From: a virus
Taxonomy: Duplodnaviria > Caudoviricetes
Virus record (IMG/VR): IMGVR_UViG_3300044711_000031
Coordinates: 1 to 42,902 of that record
Length of the DNA: 42,902 nt
Reading direction: 5' to 3' (one strand)
The translations under genes were made by a program, and so were the position numbers. The notes beneath the pieces are model-generated. The model did not search any database, had not been told where the DNA came from, and saw nothing but the letters and a program-made list of their open reading frames with translations. The stretch's first letter is position 1. Each line of letters begins with the position of its first letter. Positions 3,736-37,141 of this stretch are shown here, in pieces.

Positions 3736-4179
3736 TTACTGCACTGTCTCTGAGGTGCTGTCGTATTGCGCTCGCAGGATATCTGCATTCCAGAGCCTAC
3801 GAACACCCATACCAAGCATCTCCACGTTAACCGAGTTGCGGCGAAGCTGGCCGATCATCCCATTAACAGCAAGAACGGTTCGACCCATCTCCGCCGCGAT
3901 TGTTTCCGCAGTGGCCTTGTCCTTTCGGCGGCGGATCAAGTATTCCACTTCGGATTGCGTCCAAAGCTGATTGCTTCGATTCGCCCGATGTCCGCGAGTC
4001 CTGCGTTTCATCGGAACACCGTTGGTCCGAAGGCGAACCACCATCTTGCTAATCGCAAATCGGGTGTGTCCCATTGACTCGCAGATATCATCGAGTTCAA
4101 CTCCTTCATCCCACTGCTTCATCAGCGTCTTGATTTCTTCATCCGTCCAACGATGTCCGTGCTGCGCTTTCATTCCCAT
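3736..4179 (-). CDS. Tandem Myb/SANT- or GcrA-like HTH DNA-binding protein
   Basis: Two repeats, WTDEEIKTL... and WTQSEVEYL..., each followed by an IxxxMGxT helix-turn-helix. Confidence 0.75.
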   Translation of the reverse strand: MGMKAQHGHRWTDEEIKTLMKQWDEGVELDDICESMGHTRFAISKMVVRLRTNGVPMKRRTRGHRANRSNQLWTQSEVEYLIRRRKDKATAETIAAEMGRTVLAVNGMIGQLRRNSVNVEMLGMGVRRLWNADILRAQYDSTSETVQ

Positions 4180-7107: not shown

Positions 7108-7265
7108 TGGCCACTGACCCACTCCTCACCTGCCGCGCCTGCTTCCAAATCCTCACGGAGATGGAAGTGGCGCTAATGGATGGTGCCACGGGGGATCAGC
7201 TTCGGGAGATTGAACTGCGGTTGGTTAGCGCCCTAGAGAGGGCGAGAGAGGCGGTAGGTCTGTGA
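7107..7265 (+). CDS. Hypothetical protein (52 aa)
   Basis: TAATG and GTGA overlaps; MATDPLLTCRACF... Confidence 0.55.
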   Translation: MATDPLLTCRACFQILTEMEVALMDGATGDQLREIELRLVSALERAREAVGL

Positions 7266-7531
7266 ATCCAGTCGAGGTGGCTTGCAATGAGATGCTTCAG
7301 CGTCATGGATTCTTCGTGTGCTGCACTTGGTTCAAGGAATATCCGATTCCTTCCATACAAGTAACGCAAATCGAGCTTGGGGAAGAGACCGAGATTCGCA
7401 TCGTTGGGAGAGCTACATTCGATGATTACATGGAGCAGTTCTCTTACTCCGGCGTGGATCTCGATACGTTTCAAGGTGTACCTACTCCGGGGATCAGAGA
7501 TGCCAAATTCTGGAAGGCGGTAGCGGAATGA
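7262..7531 (+). CDS. Hypothetical protein
   Basis: Coupled ORF in operon. Confidence 0.65.
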   Translation: MNPVEVACNEMLQRHGFFVCCTWFKEYPIPSIQVTQIELGEETEIRIVGRATFDDYMEQFSYSGVDLDTFQGVPTPGIRDAKFWKAVAE

Positions 7532-7734
7532 AGCCTAAGCGCAAGGTGAAGCGCCCCAACAAGGCGGTTCGTGCTCGTTGGCAGGAGTTTGCTCGCCTTC
7601 GGGACTTGGGCCTGAGCCTCCCTGAGATTGGACGCCGGATGTTGGTTCACCACACCACGGTACGTTACGGTCTGATTCAGATGGGGTACAACGAAGTCGG
7701 GGGAACGTTTGAGTATAGGGAGGGGATCTGGTGA
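7528..7734 (+). CDS. DnaA-C-terminal-like HTH protein
   Basis: GLSLPEIGRRMLVHHTTVRYG resembles the DnaA domain IV pattern SLxxIGxxFxxRDHTTV. Confidence 0.7.
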   Translation: MKPKRKVKRPNKAVRARWQEFARLRDLGLSLPEIGRRMLVHHTTVRYGLIQMGYNEVGGTFEYREGIW

Positions 7735-10074: not shown

Positions 10075-10701
10075 GTGAAGCCATATTACGATCACGGGGG
10101 GATTGTGGTCTACAATGCCGATTGCCGCGATTTGCTGCCATCCATAGAGCCGAAATCGTTCAATGCTGTGCTCACAGACCCTCCATATGGGATCGGGGCT
10201 TCAAATGGAATTGGAAAGTACGGTAGGCTCCGTGCGAAGGATGAGCCATCTTGGGATACGGCAGCGGTTGACCTTGCTCACCTTCCGAACGTTCAGTCTA
10301 TCGTATGGGGAGGAAATTACTTCCCGTTGCCTCCAAGCCGCATGTATGTCGTTTGGGACAAGGGAGCCGGGTTTGCAGGTCGTGACTTTGCTGAATGTGA
10401 GCAAGCGTGGTGCTCTTGGGATGGCAATGCGCGAATCTATCGCCGTGATCCGCTAGCTGCTCGAGATTATATCGGCAAGGAACATCCCACGGAGAAACCC
10501 ATCCCCCTGTTTCAGTGGTGCTTAGGGATATTTCCCGATACGGTTGAGTGTGTGATTGATCCCTACGTTGGATCTGGTACCACACTGATTGCCGCCAAGA
10601 ATCTCGGTGTAAAGGCCATCGGCATCGAGATCGAGGAGCGCTACTGCGAGATAGCGGCAAAGCGCCTATCCCAAGAAGTACTGGACTGGAGCGCCAAATG
10701 A
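10075..10701 (+). CDS. DNA methyltransferase (N6A/N4C, beta class)
   Basis: TDPPY catalytic motif, HPTEKP, and DPYVGSGTT SAM-binding motif. Confidence 0.92.
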   Translation: MKPYYDHGGIVVYNADCRDLLPSIEPKSFNAVLTDPPYGIGASNGIGKYGRLRAKDEPSWDTAAVDLAHLPNVQSIVWGGNYFPLPPSRMYVVWDKGAGFAGRDFAECEQAWCSWDGNARIYRRDPLAARDYIGKEHPTEKPIPLFQWCLGIFPDTVECVIDPYVGSGTTLIAAKNLGVKAIGIEIEERYCEIAAKRLSQEVLDWSAK

Positions 10702-11060
10702 CACCTGACTGGTGGTGCTGCAACTGCGAAGCCGTAAGGGACTTGGACAACCACGGGCGCTGCTCGTGCTGTTCCTCAGACTCCGTTTGTGTCGCTAACC
10801 CAGGCACCAAGCGATTCCCCAAGCTACCAACCCACGTGGAGTTTTCCAAGATGTTCGAGGTGCTGAAATGGAATCAATGTAACAACGGAGGCAACCAAAT
10901 GAGCGAAGTAATCGTAACCGCAAGGCAAGTTCGGCTCTCACTCCGAGAGGCCGCTGAGAAGGTGGATTCCTTGGCCGGGAAGCACCTCAACGTCACAGAT
11001 GATTTTGAGTGGAATGCGGCACTGGCTGATTTACACGCAGCCCTGGAGGCTACGAAGTGA
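10698..11060 (+). CDS. Zinc-ribbon hypothetical protein (possible internal start at 10899)
   Basis: CCNC...CSCC; second GGAGG RBS before MSEVIVT. Confidence 0.6.
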   Translation: MTPDWWCCNCEAVRDLDNHGRCSCCSSDSVCVANPGTKRFPKLPTHVEFSKMFEVLKWNQCNNGGNQMSEVIVTARQVRLSLREAAEKVDSLAGKHLNVTDDFEWNAALADLHAALEATK

Positions 11061-11239
11061 AAACCTTCCCCGATTGCCCCTTCAGCGAATTGCAAATCTA
11101 CCTGCTTCGCAAGCACGCCGATGAGGTGATAACCCATCCTCCGGCGTTCATGGAGTTGCAGGACCCGGACGGTTGCCAGTATATGCGAGGGCAGCATGTG
11201 CTGGCGGTAGTGGTGAAATTTGAGGAGGAAGAGGAATGA
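11057..11239 (+). CDS. Hypothetical protein
   Basis: Coupled ORF with RBS. Confidence 0.6.
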   Translation: MKTFPDCPFSELQIYLLRKHADEVITHPPAFMELQDPDGCQYMRGQHVLAVVVKFEEEEE

Positions 11240-12207
11240 GCAAACTCATGGAAGAAGTTCAGAAGTTGCTTGATCGACTGGACAAATCGCCCATGCGAGA
11301 CACAACCGAGTGGCGGTGGGGCCGTCAAGTCGAGGAACTCCGCGCAGCCCTCGATCCGGGGAGTGAGGGGCGCTGGATTTGCGAGAATCCCGAATGCCAA
11401 GCAAGTTTTGCAGAGTACATAAACGGGTGCCCGAAATGCAGTGAGCGCGGACTTGCCTTTTCCGTTCTCCAGCAACCCCACCCTCAGCCCTCACGGGTGG
11501 TTGAGGAAGGCGTGTACGTCGCGTCAAGGGCGAGCGTTCCTGAGCGATCCGCAATGTGGCGTAGGCTTCGCGCCGAGGGATGGCCGATTGTCTCAACATG
11601 GATTGATGAGGCCGGAGAAGGCGAGACTGAGAACTTCGCAGAATTGTGGTTGCGCATCTCGCGAGAAATAGCCTCAGCCGGGAAGCTCATCTTCTACGCT
11701 GAAGCAGGAGACTTCCCGTTGAAAGGTGCGCTCATCGAAGTAGGCATCGCGCTTGGACTTGGAAAGACGGTGTGCGCCGTGTTGCCGGGAGTTCAGATGG
11801 AGTCTCGCACTTATCGCCCAGTCGGTTCGTGGATCGCGCATCCACAGATTCACATCTTCGATACGGTTGAAGCAGCACTTGCCGCTCGACTCCGCGCCAC
11901 TCCCACCATCTCGGATGGGGAGCTTGCCCGTCAGGTATCGGAATATGGAATGACGCAAGAAAAGTTGGAGGAGTTGGCAGCAGGAATTTTCAAATCTGTA
12001 TCAGACAAGATAGGTGGAGGCTGGTTGCTAGCAGGAGACAAAGAACTGGCAAATGCTATCCTAGCCGCTCTCCAAACCGCAGTTGCGGAGCAGCAGGAGT
12101 TGGACGCCAAGATCGCAGAGGATTACATTGGCGAGTATTCATCACATAAGGCAATCTGTTGGGCAATCGCCCAAACCATCAGGGAAGGCAAGAAAGAAAG
12201 GGCTTGA
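11236..12207 (+). CDS. Composite protein with a nucleoside 2-deoxyribosyltransferase-like domain
   Basis: VYVAS...STWIDE...LIFYAE...KGALIEVGIALGLGKTV, preceded by a CENPEC...CPKC zinc ribbon. Confidence 0.65.
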   Translation: MSKLMEEVQKLLDRLDKSPMRDTTEWRWGRQVEELRAALDPGSEGRWICENPECQASFAEYINGCPKCSERGLAFSVLQQPHPQPSRVVEEGVYVASRASVPERSAMWRRLRAEGWPIVSTWIDEAGEGETENFAELWLRISREIASAGKLIFYAEAGDFPLKGALIEVGIALGLGKTVCAVLPGVQMESRTYRPVGSWIAHPQIHIFDTVEAALAARLRATPTISDGELARQVSEYGMTQEKLEELAAGIFKSVSDKIGGGWLLAGDKELANAILAALQTAVAEQQELDAKIAEDYIGEYSSHKAICWAIAQTIREGKKERA

Positions 12208-25953: not shown

Positions 25954-26550
25954 CTAATTTGTGTACAACTGCCAAGTCTGAGAACTCCGTCCCGAACTGA
26001 CTTGGAAATACTGCTCAATCTGGCCCACGGTTACAAGCCCATTTCGGAGAAGCCGAGCCAGAACAGTGCGCCAACCCCGCGTCTCCGAAACGAACTTACG
26101 ACGCTCAACGGTTGCGCCGTCAATCTCGGTGTCAGGAACTTTCTCCGTCTCTACGTGCCGAACCGAGAACTCCGGCATGTATCCCGCCTCCATCCCCAAC
26201 AGAAAGAACTTCTGACCTTCCCGAATCTGGTAGATCCCTGTCTTTGTTGGGTCCGCGATAGCCCGCTCGAAATAGAGGCTTGAATTGCACTTCTTGAGCC
26301 TCTGTTCAAGCTGCAAAGAAGTCAGTGGACGCCCAATCTGTGCTTCGAGAACAGAGGTATCTGTTTCCCCGTCGCGAACATCGGATGCCGCCGATTCCTT
26401 TTCGAGAGCTTCAAGCATTGCACGACGGCTCTTATCGCGCTGGAGGCGAGTCGAGTGCGTCAGATACCGCCGTGCAGGTGTCAGAGCCGGAAGTCCTGCT
26501 GTAACCAGCCCGACTTCTAGGGATCGGTCAACTAGCATCGTTGATCCCAT
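25954..26550 (-). CDS. Hypothetical protein
   Basis: 198-aa ORF in virion operon. Confidence 0.75.
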   Translation of the reverse strand: MGSTMLVDRSLEVGLVTAGLPALTPARRYLTHSTRLQRDKSRRAMLEALEKESAASDVRDGETDTSVLEAQIGRPLTSLQLEQRLKKCNSSLYFERAIADPTKTGIYQIREGQKFFLLGMEAGYMPEFSVRHVETEKVPDTEIDGATVERRKFVSETRGWRTVLARLLRNGLVTVGQIEQYFQVSSGRSSQTWQLYTN

Positions 26551-27011
26551 TAGGCCAGATCAGTTCCGCCACGCCATCCGATGAACCATACACTAACGGG
26601 CAATGCATAGCTCGGGTTGGTTCCGCCAACGGTCAGAAGAACACGCAAGGCCCCGGTCTGAGGCATGTTGTTCTCAAGAACGCCGCCAGTGTCCGCAACC
26701 GTGAACACCAGAGCCGCAACCTGTTGAGGTCGAAACGAACAAATCTTCGCCTGAATGGAGGCAGCTGTAGTGTGTTGCACGTAGCGAGAGAACGTGTACC
26801 ACGTCGGGGTTACAGCGTCAGGATTGGGGCTGACCTGGAGAGCCACATCCAATGTCGGAGAGGTTCCAGTGCCAGCGCCCACGTCTAGGATGAAAGACCC
26901 ACCAACGATGTCGTTGGGCCAATCAATCTTGCCGCTGTTAGCCGTAGCTGTGAGAGCGGCAGTTGCGCTATAGCACAGCTTCGAGAAGGGTTTGAGGTTA
27001 GATACGGGCAT
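26550..27011 (-). CDS. Putative virion decoration protein
   Basis: Beta-rich; GTGTSPTLDVALQ; paralogous to 36713-37141. Confidence 0.65.
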   Translation of the reverse strand: MPVSNLKPFSKLCYSATAALTATANSGKIDWPNDIVGGSFILDVGAGTGTSPTLDVALQVSPNPDAVTPTWYTFSRYVQHTTAASIQAKICSFRPQQVAALVFTVADTGGVLENNMPQTGALRVLLTVGGTNPSYALPVSVWFIGWRGGTDLA

Positions 27012-27579: not shown

Positions 27580-28545
27580 TTAAACCAAGGTCGCATCGGC
27601 TTTGACGATGCGGTAGCGGTAGTTGGTCGAGTCCAAAATCTTATGGACTGTGACGAAGCGATACGAGACATAGCTTCCGATCATACCTTCAGGGTCAGCC
27701 GGATTCGGTCCACCCTTGATGACGTTGATCTTGAAGCTCTGCTTGCTCGGATCAGTGACGTTGGAAGGTCCAGCGCCCGGAAGGTCAACAGCTCCAACCG
27801 CTCCCTGGCCTACAAGATAGCAGTAGTAGAGTACATTGGGAGATGTTCCCGTAGTGCCGACGTTGGTTGTTTCCAGCACGCGGAAGTTATCGACCATTCC
27901 GACTTCCCCGGCAAGAACTTGCTTGCCAGCGGTGTACTTCAGCAGGTCAATGAATCCACCCGCCGTGTTGTCGGAAACCAGATCATACTTCGCGTAGGGG
28001 TGGATAATCGCCCGGTAGTTCGCGCCCATGCGCGGGCCCATGCGGATGTTGGCTCCTGCCAGCAATGCTCCGACGCGCCGGAAGTCCTGAACAGAGAGCG
28101 TAGCTCCGAGAGTCGAGAGGCCAACCGAAGAAACGGCAGAATCGAACTCGGTGCGAGCGATGGTGTCAACGCTCAAACCAGCCCGGTAGCCAAGGTTCTT
28201 CGAGAAGTTCTCAACGATGGGGTCAATGGCCGTCTCCACCAGCAGAGTCGAAAGGCTGGAGAAGTCGGCGTATTCTGCGACGGTGGCAGATACGGTGGTG
28301 GTGGTCTGCGGGATCGGATTTCCAACGGTGCCTTCAGAGGCTACCGTGGTGTTGGCTCCGAGCAGGGTATAGCGATACCACTGAACAGTCTTGCCGCTGC
28401 GGAGCGGAATGGAATCGGGTTCGCAAACTTCGCGGAACCGAAAAATCACCATCAGTTGGTCAAGCGCTTGGCGATTGTACCAAACGCTGGCTAGGTGCGT
28501 TAACTGCGGTGAGATAGAAAGTGAACCAGCGGGCTGATAAGCCAC
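27580..28545 (-). CDS. Major capsid protein (N4-gp56-like family, HK97 fold)
   Basis: IPLRSGKTVQWYRY...EGT...YRAIIHP...GEVG....FRVLETT...ADP; GTG start after AAGGAGG. Confidence 0.9.
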   Translation of the reverse strand: MAYQPAGSLSISPQLTHLASVWYNRQALDQLMVIFRFREVCEPDSIPLRSGKTVQWYRYTLLGANTTVASEGTVGNPIPQTTTTVSATVAEYADFSSLSTLLVETAIDPIVENFSKNLGYRAGLSVDTIARTEFDSAVSSVGLSTLGATLSVQDFRRVGALLAGANIRMGPRMGANYRAIIHPYAKYDLVSDNTAGGFIDLLKYTAGKQVLAGEVGMVDNFRVLETTNVGTTGTSPNVLYYCYLVGQGAVGAVDLPGAGPSNVTDPSKQSFKINVIKGGPNPADPEGMIGSYVSYRFVTVHKILDSTNYRYRIVKADATLV

Positions 28546-28687: not shown

Positions 28688-29347
28688 CTACAATGGAGTC
28701 GTGGAGGATGTCAAGAGGTATCCGTATTTCTCTTGAATCTCCGCGTGGTGCTTATCCCATTCACCTGATGACTTGAGCCTCTCGGTGTCCTGTCCGGGCC
28801 GCTGAACCCACGTGAAGTGATTCTCGGGAGTGCAAGCCACGGGAATACCTGCGATGTGGCAGCGAATCCAGAAATCTCGGTCGGCAAAGGGAACATCGTG
28901 GTATCCCCCAAGCTGATTCCAAACATCCTTGTGGATCAGAGCTGCGTAAGGATGAGGGCTTGCCAAGACAGACTCGGCAGTGGGAACACCTTCATGGCCG
29001 GGGGTAGGGGAAACGATTCGGTATCCAGTGCGTAGGTGAGCTTTCCAGCATTCCTCAAGGCAGTTGGGTCCGATCAGGTCATCGTCGTTGAGGATGAAGA
29101 ACCAATTGGTCTTCACGAAAGAAAATCCGAGATGTATCTTGTTTGACCATCCGGGTACGTCAGGAATGATAATCTTGCAGAACGCCTTTAATGTTTGAAT
29201 GTTGATTGAAAGAAGGGTTCTCTGGTAGTCGTCCATCGGTGCCTCGTGGCGTGGAATCACTACAGTTATTAGTGGCTTTGGTTGTGAACGAACATAAGCC
29301 TCTAATGACGTGTCGTTGTGCTGTTCTACGCTGACTGGTGTGTACAT
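28688..29347 (-). CDS. Glycosyltransferase (GT-A / GT2-like)
   Basis: ITVVIP...FILNDDD...LGGY...DRDFWIR. Confidence 0.85.
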   Translation of the reverse strand: MYTPVSVEQHNDTSLEAYVRSQPKPLITVVIPRHEAPMDDYQRTLLSINIQTLKAFCKIIIPDVPGWSNKIHLGFSFVKTNWFFILNDDDLIGPNCLEECWKAHLRTGYRIVSPTPGHEGVPTAESVLASPHPYAALIHKDVWNQLGGYHDVPFADRDFWIRCHIAGIPVACTPENHFTWVQRPGQDTERLKSSGEWDKHHAEIQEKYGYLLTSSTTPL

Positions 29348-29844
29348 TGGAAGATCGTCAATCCTCTCGGCGTGGGGATGAAAACACGCTGCCATCCTGT
29401 GGCCTTCTGAATCTCATCAGCAACGGGGCGCCGCGAGTCGTGGAGTACCACAATGCCATGTTCGGATAACTTCAGGGCCTTGGCTTCTTCGAGGCGATCT
29501 CCACTAGAGTCAAGGTAAGCGAGGTCTACAGGATCAGCGAAAGCGTTTCGTATATGGTCAACACCGATGGAGTTGTGGACATAGCCCGGAAGGTTCTGGA
29601 GAAGATCAACCGTGTATTCACACATTTTTCTGTCAGTATCGCAAGTTCTCAGGATTCCGCCTTGTCCCTCCATGTCGTTTTTCTTCAAGGCCCTTGCTAT
29701 GGCTGTTGAAACGTCTCCCATGTAGCATCCCGTCTCAACGACAGCCTTGGGCTTCAAAAGGCGAGTCAGACCATATAGGAATTGAATCGTCTCAGCCTCC
29801 GATGCCATCTCATCGCGGGAGTCCCAAGGAGTCATCGTGGCCAT
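29326..29844 (-). CDS. Class I SAM-dependent methyltransferase (O-methyltransferase-like)
   Basis: LLKPKAVVETGCYMG...DLAYLDS...GIVVLHD. Confidence 0.88.
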   Translation of the reverse strand: MATMTPWDSRDEMASEAETIQFLYGLTRLLKPKAVVETGCYMGDVSTAIARALKKNDMEGQGGILRTCDTDRKMCEYTVDLLQNLPGYVHNSIGVDHIRNAFADPVDLAYLDSSGDRLEEAKALKLSEHGIVVLHDSRRPVADEIQKATGWQRVFIPTPRGLTIFQCTHQSA

Positions 29845-30404
29845 ATCGAGGATTTCCCCTCTCCCAAGTGCATCATCTTGAGCTTGCGGAAGTACCCCAC
29901 GCGATAGCCAGCGTCTCGCATGGCTTGGCAATGCTCGGTATCGTAGGAAGGTAGCGTTTGTTCTGGCCAGTTCTTAATAGCGCCCTTGCGGACGATACGT
30001 AAGCCGCCTACGCTGTGATGCTCCATCACCTGAGAATCATTGGCCGTTTTGTAATCTTCAGGCGTCCACTCAACGATGGTGGCATTGGCTGGCATGAAGG
30101 AAAGCATCCCGTACTCAGGATGAGAGTGCATGATTGCCCTAGCCTGCAAGGTTACTGACAAAACTCCCTTGGGATTGTCTGGAGGCAGGCAGTCATCATC
30201 GGCAAGGATGTAAAACTCACCCTTGGCCATGTGCTCCGCGTACTCACGCCGCCGCTTCTGAAACTCGTAGTTGGAGCACTGCAAGTACTCCGGTGTCAGG
30301 AAATGGCCTTCAGAAACACCCTCTTTATCCCATCGGTCAATGCAGCGTGCGCTCCACTTCTCGCGCATCGCATTACCTGGGACATGGCAGAAAAACAGTT
30401 CCAT
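29832..30404 (-). CDS. Glycosyltransferase (GT-A fold, short)
   Basis: YILADDDCL DxD motif; YDTEHC..MRDAGYRVGY....MMHLG C-terminal pattern. Confidence 0.75.
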   Translation of the reverse strand: MELFFCHVPGNAMREKWSARCIDRWDKEGVSEGHFLTPEYLQCSNYEFQKRRREYAEHMAKGEFYILADDDCLPPDNPKGVLSVTLQARAIMHSHPEYGMLSFMPANATIVEWTPEDYKTANDSQVMEHHSVGGLRIVRKGAIKNWPEQTLPSYDTEHCQAMRDAGYRVGYFRKLKMMHLGEGKSSIWPR

Positions 30405-33566: not shown

Positions 33567-33827
33567 CTAGTCCTTTGCGGCTGGCTCCAGTGTTTTATAC
33601 GTATACCACCGAATAGTTTCCCCTTGGCGCATTGGAAGGGAGCCGGGATTTCTAAGGTTTGCCAAAACCATGTTCATCTTCAAGATATCAAGATAGGACT
33701 TGGCGAAGTAATTCCTCAAGAGAGCGCTCTCGTGATCTCGCCATACGGCAACAGCAGGAATGCAGTAGGCCAGAGGAGCCACAACTGCGATCTTGAACAT
33801 GAACCAGCGGCGAGTCATTTTAATCAT
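33567..33827 (-). CDS. Twin-arginine signal peptide fused to a major-capsid N-terminal fragment
   Basis: TRRWFMFK plus hydrophobic stretch; 13/41 ungapped identities to this genome's capsid N-terminus; AAGG RBS. Confidence 0.75.
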   Translation of the reverse strand: MIKMTRRWFMFKIAVVAPLAYCIPAVAVWRDHESALLRNYFAKSYLDILKMNMVLANLRNPGSLPMRQGETIRWYTYKTLEPAAKD

Positions 33828-33842
33828 GTGTGCCTTATCCTA

Positions 33843-35573
33843 CTACAAACCCGTCATGCGATCATAATACTGGTTGGTGCTCGTTGCTTCTCCCCACCAT
33901 TGATGCTGTCCAAACTGATCGAATCCAAGGAACTGAGTATTCGGGAAAGGCAGCTTCCCAACCGGGTCGTATCCCCTGGCTTGCGGTAGAACATCGGAGA
34001 TGACTCCACCCTCCCGATTCTGCATCTGATCCGCAAGGGTATCGAGGAAATCATCGAAGTACGTAGAGTTGTCGGAGAACTTGGTGATCTCCATCGTAAC
34101 CTCAGCCTTGCAAGTGATCTCCTCTGCTATCTCAATTAGTCCAGCCTTTAACCAGGGCTGAAGGCCACGAATGCGACTCTTCTTGGAAATTCTAGAGTCG
34201 CGGGCAATTGAGATAATCGGTGGCAGGAACTGTTGACGTTTCTCTTGCTCACGCTTCACGAATGGCATCAGGACCTTGACGGCCATGTCCTTCTCGGTCT
34301 TGATGTCTCGAATATTGGGATACAGGGCATTTTTCTTCCCTGGCTCTCCACAGCAGAGTAAGAATATCATCTGAATCAACGTATGTGGATCGAAGTGCCC
34401 ACGGCGAACGTCAATCACTCCCATCCGACCATCCCGGTCGAATCCCGAGACGTTCAAAACAGCGAAGTCCCCGGGAGACGATGGGTCCATTCCGTTCAAG
34501 TCGATGGTCATGTGAAGAATGGGCCGATAAGCCAATAGGATTCGTCGTGGAACGAAGCGAATTTCCTCACGAGTCGCAAGAGTTGAACCTTGAGGAATGC
34601 ACTTCTGCCGATACTGAGAGCAGTAAGTGTACGGTCCCATCTCGCGCTCAATGCGCTTCAGTTCAGACCAAGGGAAGCGCCTTGGCCATAGCGTTATTTG
34701 CTTCTCGCTGTCTACCTCGGCATCTCGGATACTGATCTGCCATTCCCGATCTGCTTCAGGCAACTTGGCCTGCTGATCAATGATGTGGTTATAGAGATCC
34801 GCATCATCGTACATGGTACCTTCCACGTCAGTCCATCCGCGATATGGAGCAATGGGGCCGCGTTCAAGAAGCGGGTTGCAATACCGGAAGTGTTCGATTA
34901 CTTCTCGGCATCCACCGGGAGTCTTGACGTTCTCCTTGTCCACCAAATCACCGTGGTCGATTACTTCATAGTGGCCCCCCGCGATAATCTTGCCAACAGA
35001 GCAGCTTGATACGGTCGGTTCCTTGAGCCACTTACGCTTGCGGCAAGGAACGGTGAATCCCTCGTTGTTGCCAAACTCCTTGGCGCTCTTAGCTCCGGGG
35101 CAAAGCTCGGGGAAAAGCCAGCGGAAAACATCGTTGTAGCGAAAGTGGGCCAGCATCTCACCCATGACCTTCACTACCTGATCCCCCGTAGCCATCGAGA
35201 GCAGGATACGAATATCGTAGTAGTTGATGATCCACTGAATCTTGTGGCTGATGCTGATGATCGTGGTTTTCAGGTGTCCGCGAGGATCAAGAAATAGGCG
35301 CTCTCGTGGTCCTTCCAACTCCCAAATATCACAAGCAGGGGTATAGATCACCTTGCCGAAGTTATCCCAAACGTCTGTTCCCCCCTTGAACTTCTGGAGC
35401 TTGTCAATGATGGGTCCATGAACTTCCGGCTCGATGTCCCTGTATTGGAGAACCTCACGGCAGAGGTAGAGTAGATCGGTACGAGAACGCTGGCGCATCT
35501 CCATCCACTTTGCAGCGACAGCCTTGGCGTAGGCTTGATCGACCGAGGGAGATTGCGTCTTGGCTTGAGCCAT
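33843..35573 (-). CDS. terL: Terminase large subunit
   Basis: PRGHLKTT Walker A; LWPRRF...SQY.Q; TID and DDFLD nuclease acidic motifs. Confidence 0.92.
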   Translation of the reverse strand: MAQAKTQSPSVDQAYAKAVAAKWMEMRQRSRTDLLYLCREVLQYRDIEPEVHGPIIDKLQKFKGGTDVWDNFGKVIYTPACDIWELEGPRERLFLDPRGHLKTTIISISHKIQWIINYYDIRILLSMATGDQVVKVMGEMLAHFRYNDVFRWLFPELCPGAKSAKEFGNNEGFTVPCRKRKWLKEPTVSSCSVGKIIAGGHYEVIDHGDLVDKENVKTPGGCREVIEHFRYCNPLLERGPIAPYRGWTDVEGTMYDDADLYNHIIDQQAKLPEADREWQISIRDAEVDSEKQITLWPRRFPWSELKRIEREMGPYTYCSQYRQKCIPQGSTLATREEIRFVPRRILLAYRPILHMTIDLNGMDPSSPGDFAVLNVSGFDRDGRMGVIDVRRGHFDPHTLIQMIFLLCCGEPGKKNALYPNIRDIKTEKDMAVKVLMPFVKREQEKRQQFLPPIISIARDSRISKKSRIRGLQPWLKAGLIEIAEEITCKAEVTMEITKFSDNSTYFDDFLDTLADQMQNREGGVISDVLPQARGYDPVGKLPFPNTQFLGFDQFGQHQWWGEATSTNQYYDRMTGL

Positions 35574-35817: not shown

Positions 35818-36720
35818 TTATGCCATCTGCTTGATGATTCCTTCAACGTTATAAGTAACTGAGGTGAAGGTTCCAGTTGTGGCTACAGTAATCGCTGTAG
35901 ATGCTTTGCATCTAATGTGCATTGGAACCCCTTCATACGGAACGGTGCCACCAGTATTAATAATCGCTGTTGCTAGAACTCCTGCAAGTGAAGCAAAGTT
36001 TAATGTCAAGGTGCGCGCCGTGTTGCCTTCATCCGTATACGCCACTGTGACTGTAAAATTGTGGGTTGTAGATGCTGTGACCAAGACATTTGCGGATACT
36101 TCAAAAGATCCATCCGTAGCTCCGTTGGTGTAAGTGGCTACGGAAGCATTGGCTGCTGTCTGTGCTGTAGCACGGCCTGCTGAGTAGATTGCTGGAACAC
36201 CCCAGCCAGCAGTTGCAACTGCAGTTGCGTTTCCATAGGATGTAATTTTTCGTAACGCTAAGTCACGTAGCGTGCCTAATGTTCCACTATCTATTTCAAC
36301 GATACCAACATTATTCCTGCCTAATCCAGTATCAAAGGTTCCAGACCCTGGACCTCCCGGCGACCATTGAACTAAAGCTCCTGATCCAAGTTTAGGACCA
36401 TTGAATCCATAATTCGCACCGCTTCCGTTGTTGGAGGCATCAACTAAACCAGCGCTGCCAAATGGAATTGTGATCTTAGCATTGGTTGTGTCTACGTCGA
36501 AAACATCAGTTGTCCCGTCAGATTTAGTGAATCTAACGGCTGTAGTTCCATTGGCTCCCGGCTTAATAATAATCGTAGAACCATCATCCGTGATCGTTGA
36601 GTTGGCGATCTGTGCTGCTGCCGTGAACTTGGCTAGGTTGTTGGCCGTTCCAGACGATGATGTGGTTACCGTACCAGCAGCGGCGGCAGCAGCTACAAGT
36701 AAGGTTTTCTTCTTAGACAT
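35818..36720 (-). CDS. Fibre-like structural protein (putative)
   Basis: Thr/Ala/Gly-rich; SGTANNLAKFT and DTGLGRNNVG fibre-type motifs. Confidence 0.65.
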   Translation of the reverse strand: MSKKKTLLVAAAAAAGTVTTSSSGTANNLAKFTAAAQIANSTITDDGSTIIIKPGANGTTAVRFTKSDGTTDVFDVDTTNAKITIPFGSAGLVDASNNGSGANYGFNGPKLGSGALVQWSPGGPGSGTFDTGLGRNNVGIVEIDSGTLGTLRDLALRKITSYGNATAVATAGWGVPAIYSAGRATAQTAANASVATYTNGATDGSFEVSANVLVTASTTHNFTVTVAYTDEGNTARTLTLNFASLAGVLATAIINTGGTVPYEGVPMHIRCKASTAITVATTGTFTSVTYNVEGIIKQMA

Positions 36721-37141
36721 ACTGGCCGTCCAGCGTGAATGTGAAGCTCGGGTTGGTTCCGCCGATGACCACCTTGACGCGATGCGTGCTCCCGAGAATC
36801 GCGGTCTGCGAAGTTCCGGCAGTCAACGTTGCGTCGGTTGCCGTGTAGGTCGAGTTTCCCTGCCCCACCACCTCAAACACTTTGTCGATGGCTCCTGTGA
36901 CCTGAGCGAAGCTCACCAGATCGGTCCATGTAGCCTGATCCGGCAATAGCTTTTGGATGTAGACGTTCATGGTTGGGGAGGTTCCGGTCACTGCCGTAAC
37001 ATTGAGCTGGAAGGTAGCGGCTGAGAATGTGTCTACTCCGGGGATTGGGCTTCCCGTGAAGCTGGCAGTCTTGGCTCCGGTAGAGAACAGAACAGAGGAG
37101 CTTGATGTTGCGTTGGTGATCAGGGTGGTTGGGTTTGCCAT
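36713..37141 (-). CDS. Putative decoration protein (paralogue of 26550-27011)
   Basis: LNVTAVTGTSPTMNVYIQ...VVIGGTNPSF. Confidence 0.65.
   Translation of the reverse strand: MANPTTLITNATSSSSVLFSTGAKTASFTGSPIPGVDTFSAATFQLNVTAVTGTSPTMNVYIQKLLPDQATWTDLVSFAQVTGAIDKVFEVVGQGNSTYTATDATLTAGTSQTAILGSTHRVKVVIGGTNPSFTFTLDGQYV

Follow-up and report, generated by a model that had tools for sequence, protein, structure and literature searches.

A small gene between terL and portal of a tailed phage joins a twin-arginine-like leader to a piece homologous to the capsid N-terminus

Why would a tailed phage carry, among its head genes, a second, diverged version of the start of a capsid protein, fitted with what looks like an export signal? 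The question is raised by an 86-codon gene, here called P86, in the Caudoviricetes record IMGVR_UViG_3300044711_000031 of IMG/VR, whose full 42,902 nt (positions 1 to 42,902, here the window) were analysed. P86 lies on the minus strand between the genes for the terminase large subunit (terL) and the portal protein. Its parts, as used below, are as follows.

33567..33827, minus: P86, 86-aa gene with a twin-arginine (Tat)-like leader and a capsid N-terminal piece (open reading frame, codon use, ribosome site)
33833..33837, minus: Shine-Dalgarno-like TAAGG, 5 nt 5' of the P86 ATG
33807..33812, minus: codons of the twin arginines R6 and R7 within T-R-R-W-F-M-F-K, fitting the TatP pattern (PMC6085387)
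33741..33791, minus: uncharged hydrophobic run, residues 13-29, with A-x-A at 25-27
33579..33728, minus: capsid-like part, residues 34-83, equal to profile positions 16-65 (alignment and profiles)
33588-33710, minus: gap-free core of the capsid-like part, residues 40-80
33571..33575, minus: AAGGA within the 3' end of P86, serving the portal gene as ribosome site
28360-28482, minus: residues 22-62 of the major capsid protein, the part that P86 resembles

A preliminary description of the window had placed the open reading frame (ORF) between terL and portal, where it is indeed present; both parts of the protein quoted there are correct, but residues 30-39, which lie between them, had been skipped. 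The gene sits 15 nt past the terL stop (33843) and 1 nt ahead of the portal start (33565). Its codon score is 0.138 in frame, within the range of eight other small phage genes (0.075-0.276), while the other five frames across it are all negative (-0.04 to -0.15). With its phage-like codon use and ribosome site, P86 is confirmed by sequence criteria as a real gene, probably in translational coupling with the portal gene. Promoter and terminator scans gave chance-level results, and no RNA dataset is listed as containing the stretch, which is uninformative on expression; presumably P86 is expressed late, along with the head genes.

The gap-free alignment to the capsid, with 13/41 identities, had been reported exactly (P86 residues 40-80 against capsid residues 22-62; BLASTP pair E 2e-7). 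The Smith-Waterman score of P86 against the phage's own capsid is 73, with a maximum of 53 in 5000 shuffles (0/5000 reach it), and the two are reciprocal best matches among 870 six-frame segments of the genome. Profile searches, which the preliminary description had proposed as a check, were significant with two capsid profiles: one built from 63 capsid N-termini detects P86 at E 5e-8 (22,246 segments), and one built from 56 distant capsids, excluding the phage's own, does so at E 4e-4 (62,219 segments). Among GenBank phages, the best of 27 tblastn matches to P86 is a major capsid protein (E 1e-2). We regard homology of residues ~34-83 to the N-terminal portion of N4-gp56-type capsids (TIGR04387) as confirmed at the sequence level; the portion concerned is the N-terminal helix and the strands that follow, about 15% of the capsid length, without the P- or A-domain core. 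P86 itself has no NCBIfam or PHROG match and is not a full-length HK97-fold capsid above the TIGR04387 cut-off. Going by the usual order of HK97 elements, we take the segment to be the helix after the N-arm plus the E-loop strands. The nearest solved relative is PDB 9D82, 'B2 Capsid', matched over residues 20-60 by the mixed profile A3 (E 4e-4); the B2 capsid is described as HK97-like in fold (PMC11654681, its tie to 9D82 resting on the name).

The leader has the features described for Tat signal peptides and anchors (PF10518; PMC6085387, PMC10924467), i.e. an R-R-x-F-hydrophobic motif, an uncharged run, and A-x-A followed by a basic residue. R6-R7-W-F-M, near the N-terminus, satisfies the TatP pattern RR.[FGAVML][LITMVF] as given in PMC6085387, the 17-residue run after it has a mean hydropathy of 2.1, and the A-x-A is a possible signal-peptidase site. 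In 30 shuffles of the window, an RR motif with a hydrophobic run turned up 0.57 times on average (range 0-2); by itself the motif is thus unsurprising. The sole case among 529 Met-started frames is the capsid-like ORF; at ~0.16% per Met start, the chance of the motif falling there is well under 1%.

The survey for further genes of this design that the preliminary description called for yielded three proteins, one from L023, one named P0010 and one from L287, in which an RRxF-type leader precedes the same ~45-aa capsid segment. In all four proteins, profile positions 16-60 are covered and the chain ends 1-6 residues past the match. The L023 protein, P0005 (L023:10971-11216, 81 aa; the same phage is also present as L030), starts M-K-R-R-G-F-L, matches the capsid segment at E 4e-10 and lies 1.1 kb after its capsid gene; the profile that detected it contained capsid sequence only, which makes its RRGFL start an unbiased observation. 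P0010 (89 aa) carries the segment at 55 bits and was one of 14 matches among 311 candidates, of which the other 11 non-query matches were truncated capsids. The L287 protein, P0024 (L287:4530-4844, 104 aa), starts M-N-R-R-G-F-L-K-G, was seen on 40 contigs and lies among replication-type genes; its piece is of the Tunturi_3 type, at 49% to the capsid of Tunturiibacter phage Tunturi_3. P0010 and P0024 were found with leader-containing profiles and their leaders are not unbiased finds; on the capsid-only profile their capsid parts score 52 and 46 bits, respectively. The design thus occupies three genomic positions, the terL-portal gap, just after the capsid gene, and among replication-type genes, and for one member the source is closely related (capsid 95% identical) to an Acidobacteriota phage that has been isolated and whose host is in culture.

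Members are rare: profile A6 gave 3 records (2 phages) among 94 whole records and A7 gave 1 among 38 Tunturi_3-type records, many of the records searched being fragments. A second profile search added no new member (13 matches, 316 candidates), no leader-type member occurred within 10 kb of 80 Tunturi_3-type or of 80 distant capsid loci, and capsid plus mini profiles revealed no prophage copy in genome contigs. A degenerate DNA pattern hit six stretches, two of them the L023 phage and four rejected as out of frame.

In the head cluster P86 is an insertion, an optional gene: in the closest relatives terL and portal directly adjoin. A capsid-piece gene is absent from all 30 distinct terL-portal junctions of relatives (0/30); in 15 of them the gap is at most 46 nt, including the two nearest by terL (51% and 50%), where terL overlaps portal by 4 nt. 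Unrelated small ORFs occupy 8 of the 14 junctions read in detail, and the gap is an insertion hot spot. These inserts (in L004, L023, L034, L041, L045, L053, L057 and L074) are genes of 50-145 aa, several of them hydrophobic.

What, then, might P86 do? Starting from the gene, its homology, its insertion and the three proteins of the same plan, we infer docking, binding and removal, and tentatively read P86 as bait: it would keep a host protein that binds capsids tethered at the membrane and so out of reach of the real capsid. The leader would dock at the host Tat translocase. The capsid piece would bind a host factor for which this segment is a linear or nascent recognition motif; such a factor could be a sensor of the immune system, or one of translation or folding that serves in sensing. 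Once bound, the factor would be removed by membrane tethering or co-export. Weight for the bait comes from the constant parts, a leader and one capsid segment with the same end point in four proteins from four sources, from their three genomic positions and different capsid subfamilies, and from the constrained-looking substitutions and the leaderless helix copies described below. There are precedents for both halves: a 29-residue stretch of the T4 capsid protein gp23 is reported to activate Lit through EF-Tu (PMC3014915), so short capsid stretches can act on host factors alone, and Tat is described as transporting untagged partners as hitchhikers (PMC10924467).

A number of observations weigh against the bait. 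Capsid sensors are described as reading other parts: for Avs7, Avs8 and Avs10 these are the A-domain and the fold as a whole (bioRxiv 10.64898/2026.01.04.697583), and CapRel has been modelled on the P-domain sheet and spine helix (PMC9712102). The ribosome site of P86 is weaker than that of the capsid gene (5 vs 8 nt), which limits P86 as a one-to-one sink. A single Atlas model of P86 is poor (pTM 0.24, pLDDT 0.54), and by this model the piece probably does not fold alone. The leader is atypical, with a Trp directly after the arginines. A Trp immediately behind the arginine pair is unusual in Tat leaders. No Pfam or NCBIfam model, PF10518 included, matches it at E up to 10; the curated Tat models seem insensitive here, since even P0005, with a leader close to the textbook form, is missed by PF10518 and reaches the Rieske anchor PF25471 only at E 0.05. 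The twin-arginine-like leader of the preliminary description stands as to motif and hydrophobic run, but as an atypical one. P0010 has R-S instead of R-R, the second arginine being absent. Two other RRx[FL] genes of L023 match nothing and carry no detectable capsid piece, and a gene with an RRDFLK leader sits in the terL-portal gap of L053 (2609-3046), as P86 does in its own, without a clear capsid piece.

The descent of P86 adds to these points. No close homologue was found in our searches, so no dN/dS can be given. P86 is a single-member cluster among ~15 billion proteins; a word-index search returned itself alone (1 candidate), and phmmer on 1.84 billion representatives returned itself and one repetitive 502-aa protein, judged spurious and not a relative. 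Viral contigs gave only an opposite-looking chance stretch of 21 aa, the Atlas gave no feature match, DNA search over 293 records found P86 only, and terL single-protein patterns found no viral loci. Natural controls indicate that a match has to reach ~50% identity across 42 residues to clear the phmmer threshold, which means that no sampled capsid representative is that similar to the P86 piece. With the distant MW202801 capsid, P86 reaches a score no lower than with any other capsid.

The selection on P86 that the preliminary description suggested is supported in part. Its 'intact key residues' are half there: of the 12 columns at least 90% conserved in capsids, P86 keeps 6, makes hydrophobic swaps in 3 and breaks 3 near-invariant ones (D to G, Q to R, R to T). 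As a neutral null, drift was drawn from the phage's own capsid gene. Of 4624 draws, 927 (20%) were stop-free, so the lack of stops is not decisive. P86 substitutions are more conservative than the null (2/927 stop-free draws reach it), fall in less conserved columns (10/927) and come with more DNA change (41/927), all on the assumption that the own capsid was the donor, which overstates selection if the donor was another capsid; if it was an unsampled one, part of the apparent constraint arose in that capsid. The claim of selection rather than debris thus keeps a substitution pattern that looks constrained but loses force through its donor assumption.

The identity of the donor bears on a rival that we consider unlikely, in which the piece is a poison for competitors: it would bind the capsid or scaffold of related co-infecting phages at the membrane, so that rival heads fail but those of the phage itself do not. 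In subfamily terms each piece is closest to the capsids of its carrier's group, yet in three cases the carrier's own capsid is not the top match. Thus P0005 reaches a score of 114 with the capsid of a different phage but 82 with its own, which ranks 44/176, and for P0024 the own capsid ranks 20/177. The foreign-closer ranks would suit this rival, and prophages and satellites are reported to block rival virion assembly (Tai systems, PMC11364771). They are also explicable by the gene moving between phages, and for P86 the own capsid ranks 7/176, its 73 being within noise of the top score of 82. That rank also qualifies the earlier 'copy of the major capsid', of which the N-terminal homology is real but the own capsid as source is not shown. 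Being among late head genes, P86 would moreover meet its own capsid in excess, and no integrase was found among 47 window proteins scanned against Pfam, so prophage expression is not indicated.

The subfamily pattern also speaks to how often the design arose. Median scores for P0024 are 128 against Tunturi_3-type capsids and 77 against the group of the P86 phage; those for P86 are 67 against its own capsid group and 38 and 28 against others. Among the four pieces at least two capsid subfamilies are represented, an indication that the same stretch was captured repeatedly. In a poorly resolved tree of the segment (48 columns), a single origin is neither shown nor rejected (AU p 0.30); several origins are favoured by this pattern and by leaders that are unlike beyond the motif. 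In the six pairwise comparisons of leaders, one pair only is alike (8/1000 shuffles), the other five giving 71-689.

The unlike leaders also suit a second rival, improbable to the same degree, in which the leader is the working part: small RRxF proteins would occupy or stress Tat late in infection, the capsid piece being filler from nearby phage DNA. L023 has four RRx[FL] genes scattered in its 19.8 kb of virion genes (7150-7665, 10256-10693, 10971-11216 and 11213-11398) and one doubtful one in the other 43 kb, and only two of the four carry a capsid piece. The second of these two, 11213-11398, overlaps the P0005 stop and looks like the capsid strand that follows (score 47, highest of 161 segments); 0/1000 shuffles reach this, yet the profile did not detect it. 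The RRDFLK gene of L053 points the same way. Filler fails, however, to explain the same segment and end in four cases from at least two subfamilies, or the conservative substitutions of P86, and P0010 lacks one arginine. Nor would it account for the same helix in proteins without Tat leaders. Unrelated proteins of 280-360 aa in four Tunturi_3-type phages, which end in G-R-K-F-[KR] (L288:1057-1902, plus; L289:396-1472, minus; L290:995-1954, plus; L291:1407-2357, minus; records G042, G041, G038 and G054, respectively), each contain a ~20-aa stretch weakly like the capsid N-terminal helix (E 3e-4 to 7e-3), which suggests that the segment is useful without a leader. Further small RRx[FG]-leader genes, with no cargo identified, occur at L104:9963-10223 (minus) and L116:14225-14503; an RRDFF gene of L104 had looked by eye like a spine-helix piece, which failed on testing. 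A variant in which phages jam Tat to stop the HXS effector was dropped, Tat figuring in the relevant part of PMC13128918 only as an engineered signal.

Decidedly unlikely, in our judgement, is that P86 is debris, a recombination product once or never functional that persists because it occupies the space between terL and portal and supplies the portal gene with its ribosome site. Its solitary cluster, its very long branch (5.7 changes per column) with broken invariant residues, and the hot-spot nature of the gap all fit this. At most 14/41 identical to any of 58 capsid windows, with which the own capsid shares 15-31, P86 has diverged further than the other three proteins and may be in the course of being lost. 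Debris sits poorly with codon use like that of other genes, with 41 residues free of indels, with constrained-looking substitutions and with a recurring design.

Returning to the bait, a stronger form of it is quite doubtful: the Tat hitchhiker route as a disposal chute, through which the tagged piece and a bound sensor, handler or rival subunit would be exported as a folded pair. If it were true, leader plus captured fragment would amount to a modular kit for counter-defence, and from the segments captured one could map the capsid surfaces recognised by soil bacteria. The weakest alternative, a membrane anchor for nucleating the procapsid or for placing portal and capsid, had been raised in the preliminary description and would fit a gene between terL and portal that is coupled to the portal start, but is very improbable and disfavoured because close relatives do without the gene and its position varies, one member lying among replication-type genes.

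The combination of leader and capsid piece is apparently undescribed and fits no known family. No paper on such a phage gene was found in the open full texts of PubMed Central and bioRxiv, though subscription papers and supplements could hold one; the main text of a preprint on huge-phage envelope proteins (10.64898/2026.10.24.761521) has no whole-word 'Tat'. Unlike usual Tat substrates, P86 is phage-encoded, its cargo of ~55 residues is without a shown fold or cofactor, a Trp follows its arginines, no model matches it and its export is predicted. With the Gol peptide of the Lit/EF-Tu system (PMC3014915) it shares being a short stretch from the first quarter of a capsid; Gol, as described there, acts alone on host factors, but is part of the intact T4 gp23 capsid and triggers defence. 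Three capsid profiles compared with gp23 residues 20-521 by hmmsearch and hhalign gave nothing (probability 0.1), a comparison of sequence likeness, not of fold. At the level of the fold, the P86 segment and Gol may be equivalent. Tai (PMC11364771) and the packaging-motor inhibitor of PLE (10.1101/2024.04.22.590561) are likewise small accessory proteins acting on virion assembly parts, but they act against tails or the packaging motor and are encoded by prophages or satellites; in the parts consulted they are not described as Tat-tagged capsid pieces.

If functional, the design would be a phage strategy of routing a copy of a conserved virion segment to the export machine for folded proteins, and the segments that phages copy would name capsid epitopes under host or competitor pressure. 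The four genes point to the N-terminal helix and following strands, not to where described capsid sensors bind; on the same condition, this predicts a capsid-reading factor as yet unknown. The design is testable with a gene of 86-104 aa, for which P86 is the weakest representative and the L287 and L023 genes are better objects.

Other fragments of capsid genes were seen in the surveyed phages. Downstream of a Tunturi_3-type capsid, an ORF of ~150-190 aa without a Tat leader (L194:3854-4423, plus) ends in a piece like the capsid C-terminal region (28 bits, E 3e-6). Stretches of several hundred bases interrupt a number of capsid genes, either within ~55 codons of the start or close to the end (L029, 9235-9402 and 9959-10792; L135, L145, L173, L202, L149/L150), and P0007, P0013 and P0023 leave the capsid frame at similar places; these look like introns.

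The virion genes of the window, all on the minus strand, comprise terL, portal, a likely scaffold, three modification enzymes and the N4-gp56-family capsid. Those nearest the argument are:

33843..35573, minus: terminase large subunit, terL (phrog_38, E 2e-40), upstream neighbour of P86
31517..33565, minus: portal protein (PF23899, E 3e-32; phrog_1216), downstream neighbour of P86
27580..28545, minus: major capsid protein, N4-gp56 family (TIGR04387, 106.6 bits against a cut-off of 60)

The likely capsid start, chosen by alignment and ribosome site, is the GTG at 28545, preceded by TAAGGAGG. The record is a single contig whose first and last ~128 bases repeat each other, and is probably complete on that account; the terminal repeat lies inside a 15-nt repeat array that spans the contig ends (42515-42902 and 1-128), which makes circularity less certain than it appears. 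The stretch was recovered without differences in one contig of a public soil metagenome run, possibly the record's own source. As to host, Acidobacteriota is only a weak guess, made because the nearest named capsid is that of Tunturi_3, at 29%. A GcrA-like regulator at 3736-4179 (minus; PF07750, E 8e-7) may bear on it, the GcrA family being best known from Alphaproteobacteria.

Between scaffold and capsid, 28688-30404 (minus) holds two glycosyltransferase-like or unassigned genes and a methyltransferase (PF00535 for 28688-29395; PF13578, weakly, for 29326-29931), possibly capsid modification genes; relatives have similar clusters upstream of terL. A 260-aa ORF (1307-2089) contains pentapeptide repeats (GGTIE/L/W)n at 1568-1898 on the plus strand. 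Finally, two small proteins (26550-27011, 153 aa, and 36713-37141, 142 aa; minus), one located before terL and the other after the capsid gene, match the same genes in relatives and look paralogous.
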